A DNA stretch of 39,433 nucleotides from a virus (Duplodnaviria > Heunggongvirae > Uroviricota > Caudoviricetes), in the IMG/VR virus record IMGVR_UViG_2597489870_000003, one strand, 5' to 3'. The number at the start of each line of letters is the position of its first letter. Position 1 is the stretch's first letter. Positions 24,150 to 39,433 of this stretch are shown here, piece after piece. Below the pieces are notes generated by a model, which ran no database searches, was not told the DNA's origin, and worked only from the letters and a program-made list of their open reading frames with translations. The position numbers were made by a program, and so were the translations under genes.

Positions 24150-25901
24150 ATGATTCAGGACGCTTTTGTGCGCCAGCGTGCGCGGCAACTTTACTGGCAG
24201 GGTTATCCGCCCGCAGAAATATCACGTCTGATGGGAATAAACCCGAACACGGTTTATGCGTGGAAAAAACGCGACCAGTGGGATGAAACGCCACCCGTGC
24301 AGCGTGTCACGCAGTCCATCGATGCGCGCCTCATCCAGCTTACTGAAAAACAGAATAAAACAGGCGGTGACTTTAAGGAAATAGACCTGCTGACCCGGCA
24401 GCTTAAAAAGCTGCATGATGGCCAGCCGGATGTGATGGCCGCAGGAAAGAAAGGCCGGGCGAAAAAACTCAAAAATCATTTCACGCCGGAACAGATTGCC
24501 GCACTGCGGGAAAAAATCATCAGCAGGCTGGAGTGGCATCAGCGGGGCTGGTTTGACTCCCTGACACTTTGCAGGGAAGCCGGGATACGTAACAGGATGA
24601 TCCTGAAATCCCGACAGATTGGGGCGACCTGGTATTTTGCACAGGAAGCTCTGCTGATGGCGCTGCGTGACGATGTGGCGCAACCTTACCAGCGTAACCA
24701 GATTTTTTTGTCTGCGTCGCGTCGTCAGGCGTTCCAGTTCAAAAGCATTATTCAGAAGGCCGCGGCTGAAGTTGATGTGGAGCTGAAAGGGGGCGATAAA
24801 ATCATCCTCTCCAACGGCGCAGAGCTACATTTTCTCGGCACTTCTGCTGCGTCGGCACAGTCCTATACGGGCAATTTTTATTTTGATGAATTTTTCTGGG
24901 TCAGTCGCTTTGCTGAACTGCGCAAGGTGGCTGGCGCTATGGCAACCCTCAGCGGACTGCGGCGCACCTACTTCTCCACGCCATCCACCGAAACGCACGA
25001 GGCATACGCCTACTGGAACGGCGACCGCTGGAACGAGAAAAAGGCCACGCATAAACGCCAGCGTTTTTCTGTGGACTGGAAAACGCTGCATAACGGGCTT
25101 ATCTGCCCTGACCGGACGTGGCGGCAAATTGTCACGCTGGAAGATGTGGTTAATCACGGCTGGAAACACACCGATATTGACGAAATTCGTGATGAAAACA
25201 CCGAAGACGAGTTCCGCAATCTCTATATGTGTGAGTTTGTCCGCGAAGGGGAATCGGCATTTAACCTGAATATCCTGATTGGCTGCGGTGTTGACGGATA
25301 CGACGACTGGAAAGACTGGAAACCTTTTGCTCCCCGCCCGATGGGGAATCGTCCGGTATGGATTGGGTATGACGCAAACGGCAGCAGTGGCAACGGCGAC
25401 AGCGGCGCTGTGTCCGTGGTGGTTCCTCCGGCTGTTCCTGGTGGCCGTTTTCGAACGGTGGAGACGCGACGCGTTCAGGGGCTGGAGTTTGAAGAACAGG
25501 CCAGAGTCATTGAAGAGTTCACGTGTCGCTACAACGTGGAACACATCGGCATTGATGTGACGGGCGGGAACGGGGAGGCTGTTTATCAGATAGTGAAACG
25601 GTTTTTCCCTGCTGCTATTCCGTACACCTTCACGCTGTCATCAAAACGGTCGCTGGTACTGAAAATGCTGCAAATAATGCGTGCCGGGCGGTGGGAATAC
25701 GATCGCGCCGAACGCGAGCTGGTCGCGGCCTTTAACGCCGTGCGTAAGGTGAAAACACCGGGCGGCTTTATCACTTACGAAACGGACCGTGCGAGGGGGA
25801 TCAGCCACGGCGACCTTGCGTGGGCAACCATGCTTGCTGTCATTAACGAACCAATTGGCGGCGAAGGAGAAAACGAGCGTTTTACGGTTATGGAGTTCTG
25901 A
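24150..25901 (+). CDS. Terminase large (ATPase) subunit (P2 gpP-like)
   Basis: 583 aa; conserved size and position. Confidence 0.9.
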   Translation: MIQDAFVRQRARQLYWQGYPPAEISRLMGINPNTVYAWKKRDQWDETPPVQRVTQSIDARLIQLTEKQNKTGGDFKEIDLLTRQLKKLHDGQPDVMAAGKKGRAKKLKNHFTPEQIAALREKIISRLEWHQRGWFDSLTLCREAGIRNRMILKSRQIGATWYFAQEALLMALRDDVAQPYQRNQIFLSASRRQAFQFKSIIQKAAAEVDVELKGGDKIILSNGAELHFLGTSAASAQSYTGNFYFDEFFWVSRFAELRKVAGAMATLSGLRRTYFSTPSTETHEAYAYWNGDRWNEKKATHKRQRFSVDWKTLHNGLICPDRTWRQIVTLEDVVNHGWKHTDIDEIRDENTEDEFRNLYMCEFVREGESAFNLNILIGCGVDGYDDWKDWKPFAPRPMGNRPVWIGYDANGSSGNGDSGAVSVVVPPAVPGGRFRTVETRRVQGLEFEEQARVIEEFTCRYNVEHIGIDVTGGNGEAVYQIVKRFFPAAIPYTFTLSSKRSLVLKMLQIMRAGRWEYDRAERELVAAFNAVRKVKTPGGFITYETDRARGISHGDLAWATMLAVINEPIGGEGENERFTVMEF

Positions 25902-26947
25902 TGAGCAGAAAAAATAAAAAAGTGCGCATGAGTTCACGCATTGATCTCGCTGATGCGCTCAGGAAAGAATCATCGCTCAGTGCATTCACATTTGATGGTC
26001 CTTATCGCCTGACCGGGCATGACCTGCTGGACAATATGTACTGTGCTGATAACGGGCGGTGGTATGAAACCCCGGTGGACTGGTACGGTCTGGCAAGAGC
26101 TGCCCGGCAAACGTCCTGGCATCAGTCTGCGCTTTACTTTAAGCGTAATGTATTGCTCGGTTGCTACATCCCGCACCCGCTGCTTTCCCGGCAGGATTTC
26201 TCGGCGCTGACGCTGGACTGGTTTGTGTTCGGTAACGCATTCCTTGAGCTTCGAAGCAATATGCTCGGCGAACCGCTTAAATTACGGCACGCCCTGGCGA
26301 AATACATGCGACGCGGAAGCGATCTTGAATCATGGTGGTATGTGCAGGATGGCAAGGATGCGTTTCAGTTTCGCCCTGGCAAAGTGTGCCACCTGATGAA
26401 TCCTGACATTAACCAGGAAATCTACGGCATGCCGGAATATCTCGGCGCATTACTCTCGGCCAGCCTGTCTCATTCGGCGGACATGTTCAGAAAACTGTAT
26501 TACGACAACGGATCCCACGCCGGGTGCATCATCTACATCGGTGCAGCGCAGGTAAACCGCGAAAGCATGGACTCCCTGAAAGAAACATTACAGGGTGCAC
26601 GTGGTGGTGGTGCATTTAAAAACGTGCTCATTCATGCGCCCAACGGGGGCAAAGAGGGGGTGCAAATTTTGCCGTTCCAGCAGATCACCGCAAAAGATGA
26701 GTTCATGAATGTTAAGGCGGCATCCCGTGATGATGTGCTGGCTGCGCACCGTGTTCCGCCGCAACTGATGGGGGCGATGCCGGGCGAAAAAAGTGCGTTT
26801 GGTGATGTGGAGAAGGCCGCGCGGGTTTACGCAATTAACGAGCTGATGCCCGTTATGGAGGCCATGAAGCACATCAATGACTGGCTTGGCGAAGAGGTGA
26901 TCCGTTTTAACTCTTATGCTCTTCTTGATGAAAAAACAGCCCCGTGA
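25901..26947 (+). CDS. Portal protein (P2 gpQ-like)
   Basis: 348 aa; start overlaps the P stop; hairpin terminator CAGCCCCGTGATGGGGCTG at its 3' end. Confidence 0.9.
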   Translation: MSRKNKKVRMSSRIDLADALRKESSLSAFTFDGPYRLTGHDLLDNMYCADNGRWYETPVDWYGLARAARQTSWHQSALYFKRNVLLGCYIPHPLLSRQDFSALTLDWFVFGNAFLELRSNMLGEPLKLRHALAKYMRRGSDLESWWYVQDGKDAFQFRPGKVCHLMNPDINQEIYGMPEYLGALLSASLSHSADMFRKLYYDNGSHAGCIIYIGAAQVNRESMDSLKETLQGARGGGAFKNVLIHAPNGGKEGVQILPFQQITAKDEFMNVKAASRDDVLAAHRVPPQLMGAMPGEKSAFGDVEKAARVYAINELMPVMEAMKHINDWLGEEVIRFNSYALLDEKTAP

Positions 26948-27122
26948 TGGGGCTGTCCTTTTTACCAGAGCTGAACCATTTTCTGGGTGCCGTCAGGCTT
27001 GAGATTATCAATTTCAGAGAAAACGTAATATTGAATGGCTTCACAAACGGTGGTGTAGGGTGAATTACCTTCTTTAAGTGGCACGATATTATTATTAACG
27101 CGAACCTGGTAATGACTCCAAC

Positions 27123-27626
27123 TTATTGATAGTGTTTTATGTTCAGATAATGCCCGATGACTTTGTCATGCAGCTCCACCGATTTTGAGAACGACAGCGA
27201 CTTCCGTCCCAGCCGTGCCAGGTGCTGCCTCAGATTCAGGTTATGCCGCTCAATTCGCTGCGTATATCGCTTGCTGATTACGTGCAGCTTTCCCTTCAGG
27301 CGGGATTCATACAGCGGCCAGCCATCCGTCATCCATATCACCACGTCAAAGGGTGACAGCAGGCTCATAAGACGCCCCAGCGTCGCCATAGTGCGTTCAC
27401 CGAATACGTGCGCAACAACCGTCTTCCGGAGCCTGTCATACGCGTAAAACAGCCAGCGCTGGCGCGATTTAGCCCCGACGTATCCCCACTGTTCGTCCAT
27501 TTCCGCGCAGACGATGACGTCACTGCCCGGCTGTATGCGCGAGGTTACCGACTGCGGCCTGAGTTTTTTAAATGGCGGAAAATCGTGTTGAGGCCAACGC
27601 CCATAATGCGGGCGGTTGCCCGGCAT
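27123..27626 (-). CDS. insB: IS1 transposase InsB reading frame (expressed as InsAB' by frameshift)
   Basis: 167-aa ORF matching IS1 InsB as recalled. Confidence 0.93.
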
Positions 27627-27820
27627 CCAACGCCATTCATGGCCATATCAATGATTTTCTGGTGCGTACCGGGTTGAGAAGCGGTGTAAGTGAACTGCAG
27701 TTGCCATGTTTTACGGCAGTGAGAGCAGAGATAGCGCTGATGTCCGGCGGTGCTTTTGCCGTTACGCACCACCCCGTCAGTAGCTGAACAGGAGGGACAG
27801 CTGATAGAAACAGAAGCCAC
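27545..27820 (-). CDS. insA: IS1 InsA (transposition inhibitor / N-terminal part of transposase)
   Basis: 91-aa ORF with [23 protein letters not shown]... zinc-finger N-terminus. Confidence 0.93.
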
Positions 27821-28790
27821 TGGAGCACCTCAAAAACACCATCATACACTAAATCAGTAAGTTGGCATCATCACCCGCGAACCTGTATTTCATCGTTATA
27901 CATTGCGATCGAAAGAGGAGTATGCACGAAGGCGACTTCGCCAGGTGTGTCGTCAACCACTGTCTCAATGCTGAAAATCAGTTTTCGCTCATCATTGCCG
28001 CCCCTTGCTTTGGGGGTAGCGGCAGGGATCTGAGATAAAGGCATTCTGCGAAATCCTTCGGCTGCTTCCAGTCCGCATGAAACGTAATGCTGGCGATTAC
28101 CGTCGCTATCTGTCCAGGTCTGTGATGGCAGCTCCAGCGAGATTTCATAAGCATCAACAATGCCCTGGGCAAGGCGTACAAGCGGGGTCAGATCTTCATT
28201 GCGGCGAAAGCTCTCCTTTACCTGCTCCCGTTTTTCTCTTAACTGCTTGTAATTAATGACCATAAGACAGCCTCCATTGATTTCTTTGCTCGTATTTTGC
28301 ACTTACGAAGTATGGTCGGCAAGGTGCCGTATCGCTGACGCGCTTCGCTTGTCTGCTGCTTCGCCGGGGCATAAAAAATTTATGCCCCGACTCTCCAGCT
28401 CCTGTATCAATCAGATAATTTCACGACGCCTTCCAGTTTATCGCCACCATCGACGGTCAGACTCTTACGCAATCCCACCACGTTGACTGTATGTTCTCGC
28501 TGCCTCAGTGCGATTTTGACGGCCTTACCTTTCACCCCATCAAATCAAAAGCCCTCACGCCTTTTTCATGCTCAGCGTGAGAAATATGGCCATTCTGTTG
28601 TGTCTCTGCGACATCGTTCAGGGAATGCTATTTACCCCCTGAAACGCGGGCTGTTCCCCCGTCACCTGCGCGTAGAAAAAACGCGTTTTTTGTGCACGTA
28701 CGGATCCTTGACGGATCCAGCCGCCACGCGGGCCGGAAGTACAAAAAGTCGTTCAAAAAAATTGTGCAAACTTGTGCACTATCGTGCAAA

Positions 28791-28815
28791 CAAAAAAAGC
28801 GCCTTATCGGCGCTT
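28791..28815 (-). terminator. Rho-independent terminator downstream of the 89-aa ORF
   Basis: On the minus strand: AGCGCCGATAAGGCGCT followed by TTTTTTT. Confidence 0.7.
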
Positions 28816-28823
28816 CAAAAATA

Positions 28824-29093
28824 TCAATTGTTGCTGTGTATTAATCGCCAACCACGAACATATGCTTCATAAGCATCTCTGTGCCTTACAGTTCCAGCCT
28901 GGCTAAACGGAATGTTAGCTAAAACTAAATCATTCTGAGCCATAGCGCGTCCTTCAAGCGCATCTTTTATGCCTAGCTCAAAAGCACAGGCAGCGCATTT
29001 GTGCCGACCTTCTTGTCCTTGATATTCAGGGAGAGACAGAAATGTTGGGTTATAACGATGAGGGTTCTTGCAAATACCTGTTTTAGCCCGCAC
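28824..29093 (-). CDS. Hypothetical 89-aa Cys-containing protein (accessory gene near packaging site)
   Basis: GTG start with GAGGT Shine-Dalgarno; Cys cluster (C8, C33, C36); own promoter and structured leader; no family recognised. Confidence 0.5.
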   Translation of the reverse strand: MRAKTGICKNPHRYNPTFLSLPEYQGQEGRHKCAACAFELGIKDALEGRAMAQNDLVLANIPFSQAGTVRHRDAYEAYVRGWRLIHSNN

Positions 29094-29330
29094 TTTATTT
29101 ACCTCATAGGAAAAATATGCGTGCCTTTACAGAGGTGCGTGTAAGCAATAAAATATACGACGCACATTTTGATTTACTTCGGAAGGCACGCATATCAGGT
29201 TAAGTGAGTCCGACCGAGTTCTACGCCCCAATAGTTGCTGCTATTGGGGCGTTTTGCATGGACAATGCCGCGCAATTATCTTGTCGCTCACAATGCGAAC
29301 GATCTTACAAAAAGGCACATTACTGTCAAG
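29094..29330 (-). promoter_or_regulatory. Sigma70-like promoter plus roughly 200-nt structured leader of the 89-aa ORF
   Basis: Minus strand TTGACA (29329-29324), 16-nt spacer, TAAGAT (29307-29302); leader contains a 10-bp-stem hairpin (29224-29251) and a 13-bp inverted repeat ATATGCGTGCCTT/AAGGCACGCATAT whose distal arm is followed by TTTTT just before the ribosome-binding site. Confidence 0.45.
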
Positions 29331-29457
29331 ATAATTGATCGTTTTAATCGATAGATAATAGACAATCTATTTGTTTAACAGATCGATTATTGAAGTAAGT
29401 GCGCCAAATGGAATGATACTGTTTCTATAAATGTGAGCATTTTTCGCGCAGATGCTT

Positions 29458-29769
29458 TTACCCAGGAAATAACGCCCGGATATTCCCAGCCATCTGGCTG
29501 GTTATCTTAGCCACTGGTGCAGACTGTGCTTCAAACTTTTTTGAGCTGATTTGTGTCACAGGTAACATCTCATCATCAGCCCATGCGGCCAGTCGGTAAG
29601 CCTCTGCCGGATTCGTCTTCAGAAGTGCCAGCCCGGCCAGAAAAGCCACGCGTTGGCCGCTTTTGCGGGCTTCTGGTGTAAGGCTGTCCAGCCAGGCGCA
29701 TGCTTCTCCTTCGTTCTTGACGGCAGCTGGCTTCAGATAGAAACTTATTCTTCTGGTTGGTGTCGTCAT
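29458..29769 (-). CDS. parR: ParR/StbB-like centromere-binding adaptor protein
   Basis: 103 aa directly downstream of the parM-like gene; resembles R1 ParR as recalled (R.I.F.L.P...LDS.P...R...A.LAGLAL...NP, C-terminal NI..LFP). Confidence 0.7.
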   Translation of the reverse strand: MTTPTRRISFYLKPAAVKNEGEACAWLDSLTPEARKSGQRVAFLAGLALLKTNPAEAYRLAAWADDEMLPVTQISSKKFEAQSAPVAKITSQMAGNIRALFPG

Positions 29770-29773
29770 TGGT

Positions 29774-30733
29774 TTACTCCTTGTTCATTGCGTACAGCCC
29801 ATTAACCAGAGCAAACTGTGGCACCCCGTCCGCGATGAAAGTCGCATTAACTCCGCAGGCTTCGCGGATAGCGGGTGCCACAATCTCCGCCCCTCCACCG
29901 ACAACCATCACCCGCCCGTAACCGGAAAAACCCGCCAGCGCGCGGATCACTCGTTGTTTCAGTGTCTCCTCCTTTTCACGAATAACCGCCATCAGGCTGT
30001 TGTAATGCGCGTCATTGTGAATGTGCTGGCGCAGCCAGGCTTCATCGTGACGGTGCTCAATAATGGTATTGGCGATGTGGTGACTGGTACGCATACCGTT
30101 AGTGGCCATCACCGACAGCACGGCATCAGCCATCAGGGAAACGCCTACGTTTGGATCGCAAAACACCTGGCTGATACCTGCCAGCTGCCCCTGAACCTTT
30201 GCCACATCCAGCGTGGTTCCGCCCAAATCCACAATCAGCAGGGATTCAAACGGACTCATGTCAGCCAGTGCCTTAAAGCCAGCCGGAATGGATTCAGGCA
30301 TAACCCGTACGTTACGGATAGTGAATGCTTCGCCGTTCTGGTACTCCACCGGGCGCATGACGTTCGCTTTTTTGCGGTTGATGTTGGCCATGTCCGGCTG
30401 TGCGTTTGTGTCGAAATACTCGCTCAGTGGCAGGGTGACAACCACATCCACCTCCTGTGGCGTGATGCCTGATTTGACCAGCGCGTGATGAATGGCGATT
30501 ACATTCACATCGCTGTACTGGTATTGCGTGTCAGTCGTCTGGACAAAACGATCGCTGACCGGATCAAAGCCATAGCGCACGCCATCAAGCATGTAGTTCG
30601 CGGGATGCGTGCCACCGAACGGCGCAGACCATTCCGACTTGAAGCTGTTCGGGCTGATGGCGTTGCGGCGTTCGCCGTTCTCAGTCCATGCCAGCTTGAT
30701 GTTGGTGGAGCCGTCGTCGATACAAATTTTCAT
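29774..30733 (-). CDS. parM: ParM/StbA-like actin-fold partition ATPase
   Basis: 319 aa; IDDGSTNIKL.W, ISPNSFK.EW, YSDVNV.A.HHAL, PESIPAG, DLGGTTLD, GGGAE, LVNG.Y motifs match plasmid R1 ParM/StbA as recalled. Confidence 0.85.
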   Translation of the reverse strand: MKICIDDGSTNIKLAWTENGERRNAISPNSFKSEWSAPFGGTHPANYMLDGVRYGFDPVSDRFVQTTDTQYQYSDVNVIAIHHALVKSGITPQEVDVVVTLPLSEYFDTNAQPDMANINRKKANVMRPVEYQNGEAFTIRNVRVMPESIPAGFKALADMSPFESLLIVDLGGTTLDVAKVQGQLAGISQVFCDPNVGVSLMADAVLSVMATNGMRTSHHIANTIIEHRHDEAWLRQHIHNDAHYNSLMAVIREKEETLKQRVIRALAGFSGYGRVMVVGGGAEIVAPAIREACGVNATFIADGVPQFALVNGLYAMNKE

Positions 30734-30880
30734 GTCGATTTTCCTTATGTTGGTTAATTAACCGTTTACGGGATTTTTAAATCCCGCTTTCGCCTGTTTT
30801 GTGCGCGCTTCATATATCGCGGCGCGTTTTTTGCTCATTTACGGGATTTGTGGATCCCGTTTCTGTCTGTTTTTTGTTTC
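30734..30880. promoter_or_regulatory. parC-like centromere/operator: two 39-bp direct repeats with internal palindromes flanking the putative parM promoter
   Basis: TTTACGGGATTTTTAAATCCCGCTTTCGCCTGTTTTGTG (30765-30803) and TTTACGGGATTTGTGGATCCCGTTTCTGTCTGTTTTTTG (30838-30876); the second overlaps the 3' end of gene A. Confidence 0.55.
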
Positions 30881-33617
30881 CACTGGTCAGGCCACCCTGC
30901 AGCAGGTCTGCTTTGCGGCTGGCGCGTTCAGTGGTTTCACTGATTCTCTGTGCGTGCTCTGCGTCGCGGATGGCGCGCAGCATGTCAGAAAGCACGGTAA
31001 CGGGTGTTTTCATGGTGTTCTGATCCTGCTGAAGTGCGGATGCCAGGCGTGCGGCGGCTTCGGGGTCTGATGCCCCCAGCTGTGCCAGATAGCTGGCGAC
31101 CGGGTTATGGCGGATCTCCGTGCTGCTTACGCCGTGATTACGGCTCAGGTGCTGCCAGAGCTGCGTGATTCGGCTGTCCGGGCGGGTATCCGGTTTGCGT
31201 ACAATTTCATATCCCTGCGGTGCAATGATGCTGCCGTCAACGTACAGGCTGCCGCCCCGTAGCAGGTGCTGCATCTGCTGTTCACCGATATGCAGGCCGA
31301 GAGATTCGGCAGACTCCCGCCATTCTTTAGCGAGTAATTCGTGGTTATCAGGCAAAGGCCGCTGCTGTTTGCGGCTCTGTGTCCAGCTCTGCATTTCATC
31401 ACTGCTGTTTTTTGCCTGTTTGTCACGAAGCGAACGCATCAGCGCCCGGCGTTCGTGCCGTTTCAGTGAGCGCATCCATTCGTTCACTTCAACGCCGTCA
31501 GGAAGCTGCGGCCACGGTGCTGGCCGTTCTTTCGACTGTTCTGTCCCGCTGTTGCCTGTTTCCTGTACACGGGGACAGTTATTGCCACGAGTCCAAGGGG
31601 CGGCAGGGCCGCCCTGAAGGTCAAAACCATTTTCGCGGGCGCTGTCTTCCGCTTCCGGTTTGCGTCTTACCAGCTTCCAGTTATCCGGATGCGTGCACAC
31701 ACGGGAAGACTCCCCGATGAGTGGTGACCAGATCCCGTAAATCTGTACGCTCTGTTCGCCGTAATCGTTCAGCTCATCTGCGAGGTCGTAGGCGGTGCGA
31801 ATCAGGTAGTCTTTGCGTGGAACAAGTACGCCGCCCTGTTTCTCTATGTAGGTGGCAAAACATCCTGCATCAGCGGCAGCGAGTACCGCATCCATTGCGT
31901 CATCCTTCAGCCGTTGCGGGCCTTCCGGGTTGCGTGCCATCTGGCTGGCAAGGCGGCGGAGTTCACGCCACACCTGACGGGAGGGGATGCCAAAGAACTG
32001 GAACTGGCGGACCCGGTGAAGGCGCGCCCAGCCGATGGCGCGTTCCACGCTCTCGGCCATTGATTTTCCGGTTTCGTGGTCAACGCGTGGCTTGCCCGTT
32101 TTCTGGTCGATGCCATCCACGGCGCGGCTGTCCAGGTTCTTTCCGATGTAGGTGGCGATGTAGCTGGTTGGTGTGCCTTTTGAGCCGTCTACGTACTCCG
32201 CCTTAAAACGCGGAGTTATGTCATCGCCCAGCTCGTGGCGGTCTTCCTGAATGGCAATATCGCAGACGTGGGACACGATGGTTTCAATCTCGTCCGGATG
32301 TGCAAAGACCATCATATGCCAGTGCACGGTGCCGTCATGGTGAGGCTCCACCGTGCGGATGCCATACCAGCGCAGGCCGTCGCGGTTCAGTTTCTTGCGG
32401 ACCGCCGCAAAAAACGTGTTAACCAGGTAATCGCTGGAGTCGCGCATGGTGGCCCCGTTCCATTTGGGATTCGGATGACCGTTCTCTGTTGTGGCGTGGT
32501 ATTTTGACGGGCAGGTGACAGTCAGAAACACCGCTTTGTCGCCACGGGCTTCGGCCAGAAGTTCCAGCCCCTTCATGGTGGCCATCATTTCTGCCTTACG
32601 GTGAACCGGGTTACTTACTCCCGCGTAATACACTGTCTCGAGATCAATCGTGAACCCGTCTTCGTTTTCCAGCATGAAACTTTTCAGGAAATCGCGTGTT
32701 TTCTCGCGCTGTGCGCGAAACTCGCTTAACGCGTCCTGGCTCAGATAGGGTGATGTTTTTCTGGAAACCAGACAGGCGGCGCGGAGTTGTTCTTCTCTCC
32801 ACTCGCAACGTAACAGCCACAATTTGCGTTTCCACCATTCCGCACAGGTCAGGCGAAGGATTGCGCCCGGTAACAGTTCCGTATCCGGATCGCTCTTGTT
32901 CAGGGCTTCGTAATGTGGCGGCATGATGTGCAGGCGTAATGCGATACGGGCCAGCATCCGGTAAGCCTTCAACATTACATCCATGGTCAGCTCGCCATCT
33001 CTGGCACCAAAGCCATCGCAGAGTGTTTCGAAGGTGCTGCTGAACATCGCCGCCGTCATGGTGGCCAGCGTCTGTATCTGGTGCTTGTTGAGCTGCGGCA
33101 GGTAAAGCAAATCGTCCAGGCGTTCGCGCCCGGCAAGGGAGCGATAACCCGGTGTCAGCCAGCGCCCGTCAGTGCGATCCAGACGTTCGAATATTTTGCG
33201 CAGGGTCCCGCGCGCGTAGCGTTCAGCCTGCTGGTTCTTTTTACCTTTCTGGCGGTCAGATTCCTGTTTTTTGCGCAGGAAGGAGAGGTGGCGAATAAGC
33301 GGATCGCGCAGATAGGATGGCAGCAGGCGCAGCGAGGCCATGGCTTCATCCACCGCGCCGCGTACCTGCTTTCTGGCGTCTCCTGCCAGTGTGATGGTTT
33401 TGTCCTGTTTTTCCTGTGCGTCCAGGCTTTTATTAATCAGGTTGCCCAGCGGCGTGGCGGAGAACGCCGCATCAGCCATTTCCTGGCAGCGCTCGTTCTC
33501 TGCCCGGTAGGCATCCAGCCAGGAGGAAAGCGCGGATTCAGGAGCGGGGATCCCCGTTCCTTCACGCCCCACTGCGTGGCGCGGTTGCTGCCAGTCCCTG
33601 ATGTACTCTGCCGTCAT
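30810..33617 (-). CDS. Replication initiation protein (P2 gpA-like rolling-circle nickase)
   Basis: 935-aa ORF; central ...TVTCPSKYHATTENG...HDGTVHWHMMVF... resembles the gpA nicking domain (HUH and catalytic Tyr region); position upstream of the accessory slot. Confidence 0.85.
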   Translation of the reverse strand: MTAEYIRDWQQPRHAVGREGTGIPAPESALSSWLDAYRAENERCQEMADAAFSATPLGNLINKSLDAQEKQDKTITLAGDARKQVRGAVDEAMASLRLLPSYLRDPLIRHLSFLRKKQESDRQKGKKNQQAERYARGTLRKIFERLDRTDGRWLTPGYRSLAGRERLDDLLYLPQLNKHQIQTLATMTAAMFSSTFETLCDGFGARDGELTMDVMLKAYRMLARIALRLHIMPPHYEALNKSDPDTELLPGAILRLTCAEWWKRKLWLLRCEWREEQLRAACLVSRKTSPYLSQDALSEFRAQREKTRDFLKSFMLENEDGFTIDLETVYYAGVSNPVHRKAEMMATMKGLELLAEARGDKAVFLTVTCPSKYHATTENGHPNPKWNGATMRDSSDYLVNTFFAAVRKKLNRDGLRWYGIRTVEPHHDGTVHWHMMVFAHPDEIETIVSHVCDIAIQEDRHELGDDITPRFKAEYVDGSKGTPTSYIATYIGKNLDSRAVDGIDQKTGKPRVDHETGKSMAESVERAIGWARLHRVRQFQFFGIPSRQVWRELRRLASQMARNPEGPQRLKDDAMDAVLAAADAGCFATYIEKQGGVLVPRKDYLIRTAYDLADELNDYGEQSVQIYGIWSPLIGESSRVCTHPDNWKLVRRKPEAEDSARENGFDLQGGPAAPWTRGNNCPRVQETGNSGTEQSKERPAPWPQLPDGVEVNEWMRSLKRHERRALMRSLRDKQAKNSSDEMQSWTQSRKQQRPLPDNHELLAKEWRESAESLGLHIGEQQMQHLLRGGSLYVDGSIIAPQGYEIVRKPDTRPDSRITQLWQHLSRNHGVSSTEIRHNPVASYLAQLGASDPEAAARLASALQQDQNTMKTPVTVLSDMLRAIRDAEHAQRISETTERASRKADLLQGGLTSGNKKQTETGSTNPVNEQKTRRDI

Positions 33618-36476: not shown

Positions 36477-36680
36477 TTAGCTGTTAGTCAAAGCGTCTTT
36501 TAACATCGCCACAAGGTTTACTTCAGGCTTTTCCATTTTGGCGCGTTTGGGGCGGATAATAATTCGACCGTCAGCCAACATCTTTTTGCATGTATTAAGA
36601 GGGATACCTGTTATCTCTGCATATTTCTGCAGGGATACATAGGGGGCATTCACATTGATATTGATGGTTATACCTGACAT
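36477..36680 (-). CDS. Cox/Apl-like small HTH regulator (putative excisionase / lytic-switch protein)
   Basis: 67 aa with helix-turn-helix (YVSLQKYAEITGIPLNTCKKMLADGRI); second gene of the lytic transcript. Confidence 0.55.
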   Translation of the reverse strand: MSGITININVNAPYVSLQKYAEITGIPLNTCKKMLADGRIIIRPKRAKMEKPEVNLVAMLKDALTNS

Positions 36681-36696: not shown

Positions 36697-36903
36697 TCAG
36701 GAAGATTTGTTTTGTTCTTTCTGGGTTAGTTCTAGGCCGCGAAGGAAGATCATGCGCGCCATGTTAGAGGATGAGCGTTGTTCTTTAGCTGCCATTTCAT
36801 CAATGACGGCTCGCTCCTCGAGGGACAGCCGAAGTGCCAGTCTTGGACCTGTGGCGGTGTTACGCGGAATGCGTGATCTGGTATCGTGAAGAACTTGTTT
36901 CAT
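36697..36903 (-). CDS. Small DNA-binding regulator (Cro/ribbon-helix-helix-like), first gene of the lytic operon
   Basis: 68 aa; divergent from the repressor gene across a 75-bp operator region. Confidence 0.45.
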   Translation of the reverse strand: MKQVLHDTRSRIPRNTATGPRLALRLSLEERAVIDEMAAKEQRSSSNMARMIFLRGLELTQKEQNKSS

Positions 36904-36978
36904 AGTGGTATATTGTGATCATCTAATAGCTCGTGAAATCATTTTGGTATCAAAAAAGATACCTGTCAAGGTTTTTGT
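36904..36978. promoter_or_regulatory. Lysis-lysogeny switch region with divergent promoters and an 18-bp operator palindrome
   Basis: GGTATCAAAAAAGATACC perfect palindrome at 36946-36963 between divergent repressor and cro/cox-like genes. Confidence 0.6.
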
Positions 36979-37383
36979 ATGAAAAATGATATTGGTCAGC
37001 GGTTGCGTGAGGAAAGGGAAAGATTGGGACTTAGTCAAGTTGCCATGAGCGACATTGGTGGAGTCAAAAAGCTAACTCAGCTTAGATATGAGAAAGGAGA
37101 TAGCTTTCCTGATGCTGCGTATTTGGCAGCGCTGTCTCGTTTTGGCCTTGATGTTCAGTATGTTGTGTTGGGAATTCACTCACCTGAAACTTATAACGAT
37201 GATGAGCAGGAGTTGATTACTCGCTTTCGAGCAGCTTCGTTAGATGTGAAAAACGCGGTGATTGGGGCTTTAAAAGGTGCGATCAGTGAAAAGGAAACTC
37301 AGCCATCAGGACGTGAGTTAAATATTTCTGGTGGTAATAACCGTATCGCTGGTCGTGACTATAACGAAACTAAGAGCAGGTGA
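36979..37383 (+). CDS. Immunity repressor, XRE-family HTH (P2 C / 186 cI functional analogue)
   Basis: 134 aa; N-terminal HTH (LREERERLGLSQVAMSD); divergent from the cox-like genes; heads the operon that ends with integrase. Confidence 0.75.
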   Translation: MKNDIGQRLREERERLGLSQVAMSDIGGVKKLTQLRYEKGDSFPDAAYLAALSRFGLDVQYVVLGIHSPETYNDDEQELITRFRAASLDVKNAVIGALKGAISEKETQPSGRELNISGGNNRIAGRDYNETKSR

Positions 37384-37398
37384 TAGTAGGGAGGTGAC

Positions 37399-38049
37399 AT
37401 GGCCGTCAACTCAAACGGTTCAAACAATCGCGTTGCTGGGCGTGATTTTCACGAAAAGAATATTCAGATAGAGCGATATGATGGTTCTCATACCGTCAAT
37501 ATCGCAATCCCTTCGAATAATGATGATGACGATCGCCCTTTGCTTAAGGCTCAGCGTAAGGAGCTAAATAGCTTGGTTGCTGCTATTGCAGAAGCTAGCA
37601 ATACTGAAGCGTTTATTATTTGGCAAAAAGTACATGCGGAGATTGGTGTAGCTGGTATTGATGATATGACAGTAAATCAATATAAAACAGCGGAGAGTTT
37701 TCTGCATGCAATGCTTGAGCGATGTAAAGATCATGATGCCTGTAAGGCTCTTGTAAGTTTATTACTACGTAACAGTGAAGACTGTGGACTTCGACAAAAA
37801 CTTCTGCGGTATTGCCATATCAATTTCGGTACAGGACGTTTAAACGATCTTACTCGTTCTCAGTTACAGTCTGCATTGTCGTGGTTAGAGCAACAATCGG
37901 CATCAAGCCACACAGAGAGTTCGACCTTACCAGAAGTCCGACTTCGTGCTTCAGAATTAATCCAACTTTATCCAAAAGAAATAATATTCTTTATCTGCGT
38001 AGGGGGTTTGGTAGGCGGTGTCATTTCTAGAGCGTTTTTTAATTTGTAA
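37399..38049 (+). CDS. Hypothetical lysogeny-operon protein with C-terminal transmembrane anchor
   Basis: 216 aa; C-terminal hydrophobic helix IIFFICVGGLVGGVISRAFF; N-terminal motif NGSNNRVAGRDFHE echoes the repressor C-terminus SGGNNRIAGRDYNE; AT-rich coding sequence. Confidence 0.55.
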   Translation: MAVNSNGSNNRVAGRDFHEKNIQIERYDGSHTVNIAIPSNNDDDDRPLLKAQRKELNSLVAAIAEASNTEAFIIWQKVHAEIGVAGIDDMTVNQYKTAESFLHAMLERCKDHDACKALVSLLLRNSEDCGLRQKLLRYCHINFGTGRLNDLTRSQLQSALSWLEQQSASSHTESSTLPEVRLRASELIQLYPKEIIFFICVGGLVGGVISRAFFNL

Positions 38050-38078
38050 TCTTACTTGAGCTAAATTGAGGTAATGAT

Positions 38079-38426
38079 ATGAAAGTTAAAAAGGTTCAAC
38101 TATTAGTTACTTTTTTATCTATGTTTTCTTTTTCCGCCGTCGCAATGCCTTTTAAAACCATTGAACGTGAGAGTTTCAATGGGGTGTGGCCATTTAATAC
38201 TGATGAGGTTCAATTACAGTGTCTTGATGGTAATCCTTATGTAATGAATTTTGACGATAATAAGTTATATGCACTTACAGGTTTGGCTCGAATAAAAGGT
38301 AAAACATTTGGTGCGTTACCGTTAGATAACAATAATCCATTTTGGCTAGATAATGATGCCGCCCCAGGGTTAAAAAAGAGTCTGGGGGATGTCACTAAGG
38401 CTGCATTTGATTTATGTGATAAGTAA
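38079..38426 (+). CDS. Hypothetical secreted/periplasmic protein (lysogenic-conversion candidate)
   Basis: 115 aa; N-terminal signal peptide (MKVKKVQLLVTFLSMFSFSAVA); two Cys; AT-rich. Confidence 0.55.
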   Translation: MKVKKVQLLVTFLSMFSFSAVAMPFKTIERESFNGVWPFNTDEVQLQCLDGNPYVMNFDDNKLYALTGLARIKGKTFGALPLDNNNPFWLDNDAAPGLKKSLGDVTKAAFDLCDK

Positions 38427-38431
38427 CTAAA

Positions 38432-39433
38432 ATGTCGGTTCGTAAGATTCCATCAGGTAAATGGCTTTGCGAATGTTATCCCTACGGGGCATCGGGAAAA
38501 CGCATTCGTAAACAGTTTGCGACAAAAAGTGAGGCGCTCTCTTATGAGCGCCGTTTAATGAATAGTAGAGTTGGAGACGAGTTTCAAGATGGTTCTGGTC
38601 CTCGTCTTTCTGAGTTGATTGCTCGTTGGTTTGAGATGTACGGTAAAACCTTGTCCTCTGGTGCAGAGCGCAAAGTCAAACTTGAGGCGATTTGTTCCAG
38701 GCTGGGAGATCCATTTGCTTCGCAGTTTGACAAAAATATGTTTGCTACTTATCGGGAAAGAAGGCTATCAGGAGAATGGAATCCCAAGGGGAAGAAAAAA
38801 CTTAGTGAAGCAACCGTTAATCGCGAGCAGTCATATCTACATGCTGTTTTTGCCGAACTGAAGCGCCTTGGGGAGTGGTCTGGTGAAAACCCCCTGACTG
38901 GTATTCGCAAGTTTCGTGAGGAAGAAAAGGAACTGGCGTTTCTGTATGTAGATGAGATTGAACGCCTTCTGATTGCGTGTGATGAGTCACGGAATAAAGA
39001 TTTGGGGGTTGTTGTCCGTATTGGGCTTGCGACTGGTGCTCGGTGGAGTGAAGCAGAAGGATTAAAGCAATCTCAAGTACTGCCCGGTCGAATCACATTT
39101 GTTAAAACTAAAGGAAAGAAGAACCGCACTGTACCGATTTCACCTCAATTGCAGGCTATGCTTCCTAAAAAACGAGGAGCGCTATTTTCACCATGTTATG
39201 AGGCTTTTGACGCTGCAATTAAGAGAGCGAAGATCGAGCTTCCTGATGGGCAATTAACTCATGTGCTACGTCACACGTTTGCCAGTCATTTTATGATGCG
39301 GGGCGGAAATATTCTTGTGTTGCAAAAAATACTGGGGCATAGCGATATAAAAATGACTATGCGTTATGCGCATTTTGCTCCAGGTCATTTAGAGGCTGCT
39401 GTTGAATTGAACCCTTTTGACAATAGAGGGTAA
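38432..39433 (+). CDS. Tyrosine integrase (phage integrase family)
   Basis: 333 aa; C-terminal catalytic region ...ARWSE...VLRHTFASHFMMRGGNILVLQKILGHSDIKMTMRYAHF... (R...H-x-x-R...Y); stop codon is the last triplet of the window. Confidence 0.93.
   Translation: MSVRKIPSGKWLCECYPYGASGKRIRKQFATKSEALSYERRLMNSRVGDEFQDGSGPRLSELIARWFEMYGKTLSSGAERKVKLEAICSRLGDPFASQFDKNMFATYRERRLSGEWNPKGKKKLSEATVNREQSYLHAVFAELKRLGEWSGENPLTGIRKFREEEKELAFLYVDEIERLLIACDESRNKDLGVVVRIGLATGARWSEAEGLKQSQVLPGRITFVKTKGKKNRTVPISPQLQAMLPKKRGALFSPCYEAFDAAIKRAKIELPDGQLTHVLRHTFASHFMMRGGNILVLQKILGHSDIKMTMRYAHFAPGHLEAAVELNPFDNRG

Follow-up and report, generated by a model that had tools for sequence, protein, structure and literature searches.

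A P2-like prophage repressor and its predicted membrane partner carry matched, covarying terminal motifs

The lysogeny operon

The window analyzed here, a 39,433-nt stretch of viral DNA (IMG/VR record IMGVR_UViG_2597489870_000003), is a P2-like E. coli prophage whose lysogeny region is 97.9% identical to that of Escherichia phage 520873 (Xuanwuvirus). On the + strand, from position 36979 to the window end, four tightly packed open reading frames (ORFs) encode an immunity-type repressor, a 216-aa protein (orf216), a 115-aa protein (orf115), and an integrase. They are separated by gaps of 15, 29, and 5 nt, and a scan for terminator-like sites on the + strand of this operon found none. The features on which the analysis turns are:

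36979-37383, + strand: 134-aa XRE/helix-turn-helix (HTH) immunity-type repressor (HTH_31/XRE match, AlphaFold2 (AF2) model, homologues)
37318-37368, + strand: C-terminal tail motif of the repressor, LNISGGNNRIAGRDYNE, residues 114-130, followed by the basic end TKSR
37384-37398, + strand: 15-nt spacer, read directly from the sequence, with the in-frame stops TGA TAG TAG and a strong Shine-Dalgarno (SD) sequence, GGGAGGTG, for orf216
37399-38049, + strand: orf216, membrane partner gene encoding an N-terminal motif, a Flk_N helical domain, and a C-terminal tail anchor (phrog_5825, E = 6e-102; PF27202, Flk_N)
37405-37455, + strand: N-terminal motif of orf216, VNSNGSNNRVAGRDFHE, residues 3-19, in a predicted disordered segment
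37531-37893, + strand: Flk_N-type helical domain of orf216, residues ~45-165 (Flk similarity, AF2 model)
37972-38040, + strand: C-terminal hydrophobic tail anchor of orf216, residues ~192-214 (hydropathy, AF2 model)
38079-38426, + strand: orf115, a predicted secreted DUF2511/YebY-like protein with a signal peptide at residues 1-22; cargo gene in a variable slot before int
38432-39433, + strand: tyrosine integrase (Int_N and Phage_integrase), last gene of the operon, stopping at the window end

A sequence-only reading of this stretch had described two accessory genes between repressor and integrase, read in the direction of the repressor as in a lysogenic operon, and had contrasted this order with P2, in which C and int adjoin. 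The ORFs, their arrangement, and the contrast with P2 all hold; position 36979, taken as the start of the inserted genes, is the start of the repressor itself. We infer from this arrangement that orf216 and orf115 are expressed in lysogens. The two genes do lie in AT-rich DNA, but this does not set them apart: GC content at third codon positions is 0.36 in the repressor, 0.32 in orf216, 0.28 in orf115 (the lowest), and 0.37 in int, as compared to 0.48-0.68 in the structural genes. AT-richness is a feature of the whole lysogeny operon (0.28-0.37), not of its two middle genes alone.

The repressor tail and the orf216 N-terminus carry one motif

In the AF2 model, the repressor comprises an HTH domain (residues 1-64), two helices (74-104), and a tail (104-134) that is unstructured, with a predicted local distance difference test (pLDDT) score below 50. 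There is no RecA-type cleavage domain. The tails end in basic residues; tail-less relatives stop just past the helical core, at 118-119 aa, and evidently function as repressors on their own. In orf216, residues 1-23, 25-27, and 34-40 are likewise unstructured in the AF2 model (pLDDT below 50), and the sole hydrophobic 17-mer lies within residues 192-214 (Kyte-Doolittle hydropathy 2.15), where AF2 places a helix at 192-215, in agreement with the C-terminal membrane anchor of the sequence-only reading. The body of the protein is presumably cytoplasmic and held by this anchor.

The two disordered ends resemble each other. Repressor residues 114-130, LNISGGNNRIAGRDYNE, and orf216 residues 3-19, VNSNGSNNRVAGRDFHE, are identical at 10 of 17 positions (pairwise BLASTP E = 2e-5), a likeness that the sequence-only reading had put down to a shared interaction motif or a partial duplication. 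The first of these explanations gains strong support from the covariation described below. The second can be rejected for a recent event: at the nucleotide level the copies agree at 30 of 51 positions, and 6 of the 10 identical residues are encoded by different, synonymous codons, which argues for selection at the protein level and rules out both a recent duplication and gene conversion. A read-through fusion of repressor and orf216 was also ruled out, because three in-frame stops separate the genes and the relation of their frames is not kept in relatives.

The motif differs between lineages, and the repressor and partner copies change together. Over eight motif types, the cognate pairing was the best of all 40,320 permutations (388 versus 221.5 +/- 31), and the cognate score was the row and column maximum for seven of the eight. 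Examples of a repressor tail followed by the N-terminus of its partner are:

QQFNGPVGGVTSGDVVN / QQFNGAVKQVAAGDIKN
QIFNGDISGQFAGNQIINN / QEFNGTAQGQFSSRDIINI
NNVQIGSV / GNVQIGKV
VVGQVSSQNIYN / VVGQVAANNIYN

A scan of IMG/VR with the back-translated enterobacterial motif returned at least 120 contigs. Among the matches listed, all 77 C-terminal occurrences are on HTH repressors of many immunity types, and all 88 near-N-terminal occurrences are on putative membrane proteins of four unrelated families: Flk_N with an anchor, a zinc ribbon with two to three transmembrane (TM) segments, and two others. With the additional families found for other motif types, the motif heads at least five unrelated membrane-protein families overall, in P2-like and Mu-like prophages of several Proteobacteria.

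Gilliamella offers a natural swap: identity among its repressors is 89-99% over the cores but only 33-68% over the tails, and every tail has a matching partner of its own, in one case a Flk_N protein and in the others a 2-TM protein. Such a pattern speaks against a receptor site within the core of the repressor and against a constant host factor. Core-receptor mimicry, in which the tail would dock on the helical core of the repressor and the partner would mimic the tail, is disfavoured for the same reason: the cores stay nearly constant while tails and partners change together.

In two high-GC P2-like contigs from IMG/VR, a CAP12/Pycsar-type TIR ORF (PF10137; L194, 3020-3997) and a PIN_8 ORF (L195, 3009-4601) continue in frame behind a motif-bearing N-terminus. 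We downgraded both as motif-headed effectors, since each is a single instance with an internal SD sequence and ATG ~66-69 codons in. Either these are cargo genes that entered behind a truncated partner, or they are true motif-effector fusions.

The pair recurs in P2-like and Mu-like prophages

At 12 loci from 10 enterobacterial genera, the gene immediately 5' of the Flk_N gene is always an HTH repressor of 126-134 aa whose tail ends ...SGxGNR[IV]AGRD[FY]xExKK. The gap between the two genes is 9-17 nt, and the gene 3' of the Flk_N gene varies. The same pair is found in integrase-less transposable prophages of the Mu-like or B3-like kind, from Pseudomonas, Pectobacterium, Brenneria, Gilliamella, and metagenomic contigs; its neighbours there are transposase, Mor, or holin genes. 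Across P2-like and Mu-like contexts, the pair has no third gene conserved beside it. Occurrence in both phage types indicates that the pair is a portable immunity module and not an insertion specific to this phage.

Partner and tail go together. Among the IMG/VR matches listed, a matching N-terminus lies downstream of 72 of the 73 tail-bearing repressors with a readable downstream ORF (background 2.4%), and 64 of 66 complete partners contain a TM or hydrophobic segment. Repressor relatives that are tail-less or carry another C-terminal domain lack a matching partner and are followed by int or an unrelated gene. Judged from these sequences, orf216 appears to be an obligate neighbour of tail-bearing repressors rather than free cargo in the lineages examined. 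The two genes that the sequence-only reading had treated as equivalent insertions are therefore not equivalent: orf216 is conserved as the partner of tail-bearing repressors, whether the prophage is P2-like or Mu-like, and orf115 is cargo. To this extent orf216 comes close to being a conserved gene of the lineage, but it is neither structural nor replicative.

A variant arrangement occurs in Ralstonia phage YO077_2 (L022, 3350-3703, - strand), in which the repressor and a Flk_N-like gene are convergent and not in tandem. A zinc-ribbon membrane ORF lies directly 3' of this repressor, and the core of the motif, NNVQIG, is RHIM-like.

orf216 is a small relative of Flk

Residues 45-165 of orf216 align with residues 26-146 of E. 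coli Flk at 28% identity (BLASTP E = 2e-10). The orf216 family belongs to the Flk_N domain family by a precomputed Pfam assignment (PF27202), and orf216 matches NCBIfam PRK10715 over positions 20-149 (E = 8e-16). This match reaches 58 bits, as compared to an equivalog cutoff of 353, and does not amount to full-length equivalence. Flk, which is tail-anchored and regulates the flagellar secretion switch from the cytoplasm (PMC13344023; PMC6794478 for the tail-anchored topology), has about 330 aa and repeated Flk_N units; it shares with orf216 the Flk_N domain, the cytoplasmic orientation presumed for orf216, and the C-terminal anchor. By contrast, orf216 is phage-borne and repressor-linked, has a single Flk_N unit in its 216 aa, and bears an N-terminal motif that E. 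coli Flk lacks. On sequence grounds, then, orf216 is not a Flk orthologue.

The family is small, with 135 representative clusters among 1.84 billion proteins, and its architecture of N-terminal motif, helical domain, and anchor is constant. No HTH-Flk_N fusion proteins were found among these clusters. Searches of PADLOC models gave no match for orf216 or orf115, and searches of Pfam, NCBIfam, and PADLOC placed orf216 in no toxin family. The first three-helix part of the Flk_N domain resembles the Red-beta C-terminal domain and NinB. This half is found by itself at the C-terminus of a 270-aa Rha-type phage regulatory protein (P0233), and PHROG Ant-like families match it as well, so that it seems to be a self-standing module that phages reuse widely. 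Two viral scans, one with P0186 and one with P0139, yielded no relatives.

orf115 occupies a cargo slot before int

The product of orf115 begins with a predicted Sec-type signal peptide (MKVKK, a hydrophobic stretch, and AVA|MP), as the sequence-only reading had proposed. It matches Pfam DUF2511 (PF10709) with 28.4 bits against a gathering threshold of 21 (E = 2.3e-6), belongs to phrog_2950, and aligns to the solved structure of YebY (PDB 7n0j) as a very divergent relative (E = 0.0027). With the DUF2511 proteins YebY and MlbQ it has in common the signal peptide, W37, and the cysteine pair C48-C113, the YebY positions being kept at identical numbering; in YebY, C48 and C113 form the stabilizing disulfide of a periplasmic protein (PMC8689200). 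MlbQ is a putative lantibiotic self-resistance protein. Apart from its divergence from YebY (E = 0.003), orf115 differs in genomic context: it lies in a prophage cargo slot between orf216 and int instead of in the copper-linked yobA-yebZ-yebY operon. That it acts at the envelope, in exclusion or protection, is a reasonable guess.

We surveyed the slot in 69 P2-like loci in which an orf216-type gene is followed by int and found at least 12 alternative gene sets, or none:

DUF2511: 26 of 69 loci
288-aa BRCT protein: 13 of 69
291-aa protein, 33% identical to K139 orf2 (E = 2e-51): 10 of 69
DUF8087: 9 of 69
VasI-like exported protein: 3 of 69
Abi_alpha protein and a small ORF: 2 of 69
AAA_15/AAA_21 ATPase and a second ORF: 1 of 69
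empty: 4 of 69
other content: the remainder of the 69 loci

The slot before int is a truly swappable position within the lysogenic operon, and orf115 is an independent, swappable cargo gene that is probably expressed with it. The view that the inserted genes occupy a classic position for exclusion genes thus applies to one of them: the slot beside int is a true accessory and defence slot (Abi_alpha, AAA_15, the K139 orf2 homologue, and others), but orf216 is not in it. Individual contents include an Abi_alpha gene (PF14337, E = 1.6e-47) with a 113-aa ORF (L029, IMG/VR) and an AAA_15/AAA_21 ATPase with a 172-aa ORF (L122, IMG/VR). Full-length homologues of the BRCT-containing orf2 of Vibrio phage K139 (L215, 2194-3099), 33% identical to it, stand at the corresponding place of the operon in prophages of Kosakonia and Enterobacter (L017-L019, 4663-5538).

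A proposed coupling of repressor and membrane protein

We favour, with a probability of about 0.6, a reading in which the region consists of two things: a two-gene immunity module, in which repressor and orf216 are coupled by their matched motifs, and orf115 as independent cargo. The matched sequences suggest that the repressor tail and the orf216 N-terminus bind each other and form a two-part switch. The disordered tail would pair directly with the same ~17-residue motif at the disordered N-terminus of the partner, as a homotypic β-strand zipper and possibly by amyloid-like stacking, and repressor and membrane protein would become physically coupled. In the consequence that we prefer, the membrane partner would capture, or co-assemble with, repressor tails. 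How much repressor is left to bind DNA would be set or switched by this capture, and the prophage would gain a membrane input that is conditional and independent of RecA-type cleavage. We prefer capture of the repressor because the motif and a membrane segment are the only features common to all partner families and because the tail-less relatives evidently repress on their own.

Several observations weigh against this coupling. A Flk_N protein with a G/N-rich N-terminal motif (L149, 1607-2758) lies behind a 149-aa HTH protein without a matching C-terminus, and an IMG/VR locus with a low motif score (L058) is a second exception. Ten tail or N-terminal peptides gave no Pfam match to known amyloid-motif profiles at E <= 10; the many like charges of the enterobacterial motif (R, R, D, E) are awkward for in-register stacking, and the Ralstonia-type NVQIG core resembles the G-phi-Q-phi-G signature only loosely. 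Strong conservation of the Flk_N domain implies some function beyond anchoring. Finally, the SD sequence of orf216 is much stronger than that of the repressor. Constitutive 1:1 sequestration would then defeat repression, which argues against stoichiometric capture of this kind and for a conditional interaction.

Alternative explanations

The opposite direction of control, in which the repressor gates the membrane protein, is nearly as likely. Its full form, an abortive-infection, addiction, or toxin-antitoxin-like system whose membrane protein is harmful or defensive once self-assembled via its N-terminal motif, seems to us somewhat improbable. The repressor tail might cap the partner motif, as an antitoxin by mimicry, or might template it when the repressor is perturbed, for example by the antirepressor of a competitor or satellite, and so disable the cell. 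Type II toxin-antitoxin systems with HTH antitoxins have this gene order, with an HTH protein bearing a disordered C-terminal tail directly 5' of its partner and a very short gap between them, and their pairing is likewise specific and orthogonal. The partners are mostly small membrane proteins with one to few predicted membrane segments, swapped like effectors, and the tails diversify fast on a constant core, as in conflict systems. In E. coli, the abortive-infection pair Bab/Agp is driven by the same grammar, a C-terminal motif in one protein and its N-terminal counterpart in the next (10.1101/2024.11.07.622273), and the TIR (PF10137) and PIN_8 ORFs run on in frame from the motif at two loci. 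These ORFs, however, may be cargo behind a truncated partner, given their internal starts and single occurrence. Moreover, antitoxin tails do not resemble their toxins, whereas tail and partner motifs match here; the partner is in no known toxin family and has no PADLOC match; and the HTH protein sits at the position of the prophage immunity repressor. Chromosomal Flk is a regulator and not a toxin (PMC13344023), the module is intact in about 10% of complete E. coli genomes, and the phage would be harmed at induction by a killing effector linked to its own repressor.

A more far-reaching version, which we regard as unlikely, is that temperate P2-like and Mu-like phages of Proteobacteria wire their master repressor to a membrane protein by a self-templating, amyloid-like matched motif, making a prion-like lysis-lysogeny or guard switch. 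A membrane event, such as envelope stress, the entry of another phage, or a change in the state of a secretion machine, would nucleate the partner N-termini, whose assembly would draw in repressor tails and switch the prophage on; in reverse, an attack on the repressor would fire the membrane effector. If true, this would be the first amyloid-signalling pair with a transcription factor as a partner.

Direct pairing would not be needed if the motif were a tag shared by both proteins and read by a third factor of phage or host, such as an antirepressor, a protease, or an adaptor, with the membrane protein serving as a decoy or buffer. Like degrons and docking peptides, the two segments lie at protein ends and are disordered; the tails end in basic residues, and related prophages contain antirepressor and 'derepression' genes. 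Yet several motif types occur on near-identical repressor cores within the single genus Gilliamella, and types A and C are both present in Enterobacterales. Such diversity within one host group makes a constant host factor unlikely, and with no third gene conserved beside the pair we consider this explanation distinctly improbable. Least probable by far is that the genes are independent morons, orf216 being a phage-borne Flk with an effect on flagellar export or on the motility of lysogens, and the motif a functionless leftover of a duplication. The Flk_N homology and the tail-anchored topology, as in Flk (PMC13344023; PMC6794478), are what this view can draw on. Against it stand the covariation over eight motif types, the synonymous divergence of the two copies, the same motif on membrane partners other than Flk relatives, the absence of the partner wherever the tail is missing, the lack of such an N-terminus in E. 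coli Flk, and an NCBIfam Flk score far below the cutoff.

Comparison with known systems

In amyloid-signalling pairs (fungal HET-S/NWD2, bacterial BASS pairs, E. coli Bab/Agp BASS11), two neighbouring genes likewise encode proteins that share a ~17-25-residue motif, C-terminal in one and N-terminal in the other. Cognate covariation, portability of the motif between unrelated domains, and membrane targeting of one partner are further points in common. Within this class, Bab/Agp is a prophage-borne abortive-infection pair of E. coli (10.1101/2020.01.06.895854, 10.1101/2024.11.07.622273). In our pair, however, the C-terminal motif is on a DNA-binding master repressor and not on a Bell/HeLo effector, and the N-terminal motif is on membrane proteins and not on an NLR/STAND or TPR sensor. 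The motifs match none of the RHIM, HET-s, or PP profiles, and the enterobacterial motif, known here from sequence and monomer disorder prediction, is unusually charged. The repressor/orf216 pair is no more than a candidate for the amyloid-signalling class. Literature searches by family name, by locus tag, and for amyloid signalling together with repressor and prophage found no description of the module; ECs_2619 is mentioned incidentally only.

From the cI-rexA-rexB operon of lambda, lysogens transcribe accessory genes, one of them for a membrane protein, together with the gene for the immunity repressor. The Rex proteins have, to our knowledge, no motif in common with CI and no known contact with it. 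The sequence-only reading had compared the inserted genes to rexAB; this comparison does not extend to homology, as neither gene has a RexA or RexB match in Pfam, PHROGs, or PADLOC.

The closest described arrangement is the operon cI-orf2-glo-int of the P2-family Vibrio phage K139, with two genes between repressor and integrase and a lysogenic promoter (GenBank annotation). Its Glo protein is periplasmic and annotated as "involved in phage exclusion", but is not homologous to orf115. K139 cI is a 215-aa repressor that, unlike the repressor here, has no tail, and K139 has neither a Flk_N partner nor a matched motif.

Distribution and surrounding regions

The lysogeny region is ~99% identical to that of prophage Sp13 of E. 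coli O157:H7 Sakai (ECs_2620 to ECs_2617), and 504 of 5,426 complete E. coli genomes, Sakai with its Sp13 included, carry the same 1.6 kb at a coverage of at least 80%. In phage 520873 (NC_049344; L001, 3684-5725), orf216 and orf115 each match in three pieces only and are unannotated, and the integrase is split into two coding sequences, which points to sequencing frameshifts or to decay of the whole lysogeny operon.

Upstream of the repressor lie the switch region and a divergent early operon:

36941-36969, - strand: sigma-70-like promoter, TTGACA-17-CAAAAT, facing the early operon and marking the switch region (consensus scan only)
36697-36903, - strand: Arc-like gene for a ribbon-helix-helix repressor (phrog_3431, E = 1e-28), first gene of the early operon, preceding the Cox-like gene
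36477-36680, divergent early operon: Cox-like gene, product assigned by profile match

The Arc-like gene is an extra regulator ahead of the Cox-like gene for which P2 has no counterpart; the annotators of Sakai instead placed a 45-aa gene, ECs_2621, on the other strand here.

Positions 26950-30800, between the portal gene (25901-26947) and the replication gene gpA (30810-33617), correspond to the classical P2 defence hotspot. They contain a transposase-like ORF (27123-27626, phrog_720), a ParB-like 'partition protein' (29774-30733, phrog_691), and several further ORFs without an assignment. Work on defence hotspots of P2 mentions only a minor one somewhere between integrase and primase (PMC13586616).

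Implications

The slot before int is a cargo hotspot, sometimes with Abi-type genes, and is worth mining for defence systems. For annotation, the pairing provides a rule: the gene directly 3' of a tail-bearing repressor belongs to the immunity module. The motif types supply a series of naturally orthogonal pairs. Until now, matched motifs encoded by neighbouring genes have been known from NLR-type cell-death and abortive-infection systems; here they would extend to a transcription factor. If the proposed link between repressor and membrane protein is true, the lysis-lysogeny switch would gain an input or output of a new kind. Prophages of both types, P2-like and Mu-like, are abundant; their repressors have no RecA-cleavable domain, and such a link may provide a new route to induction.

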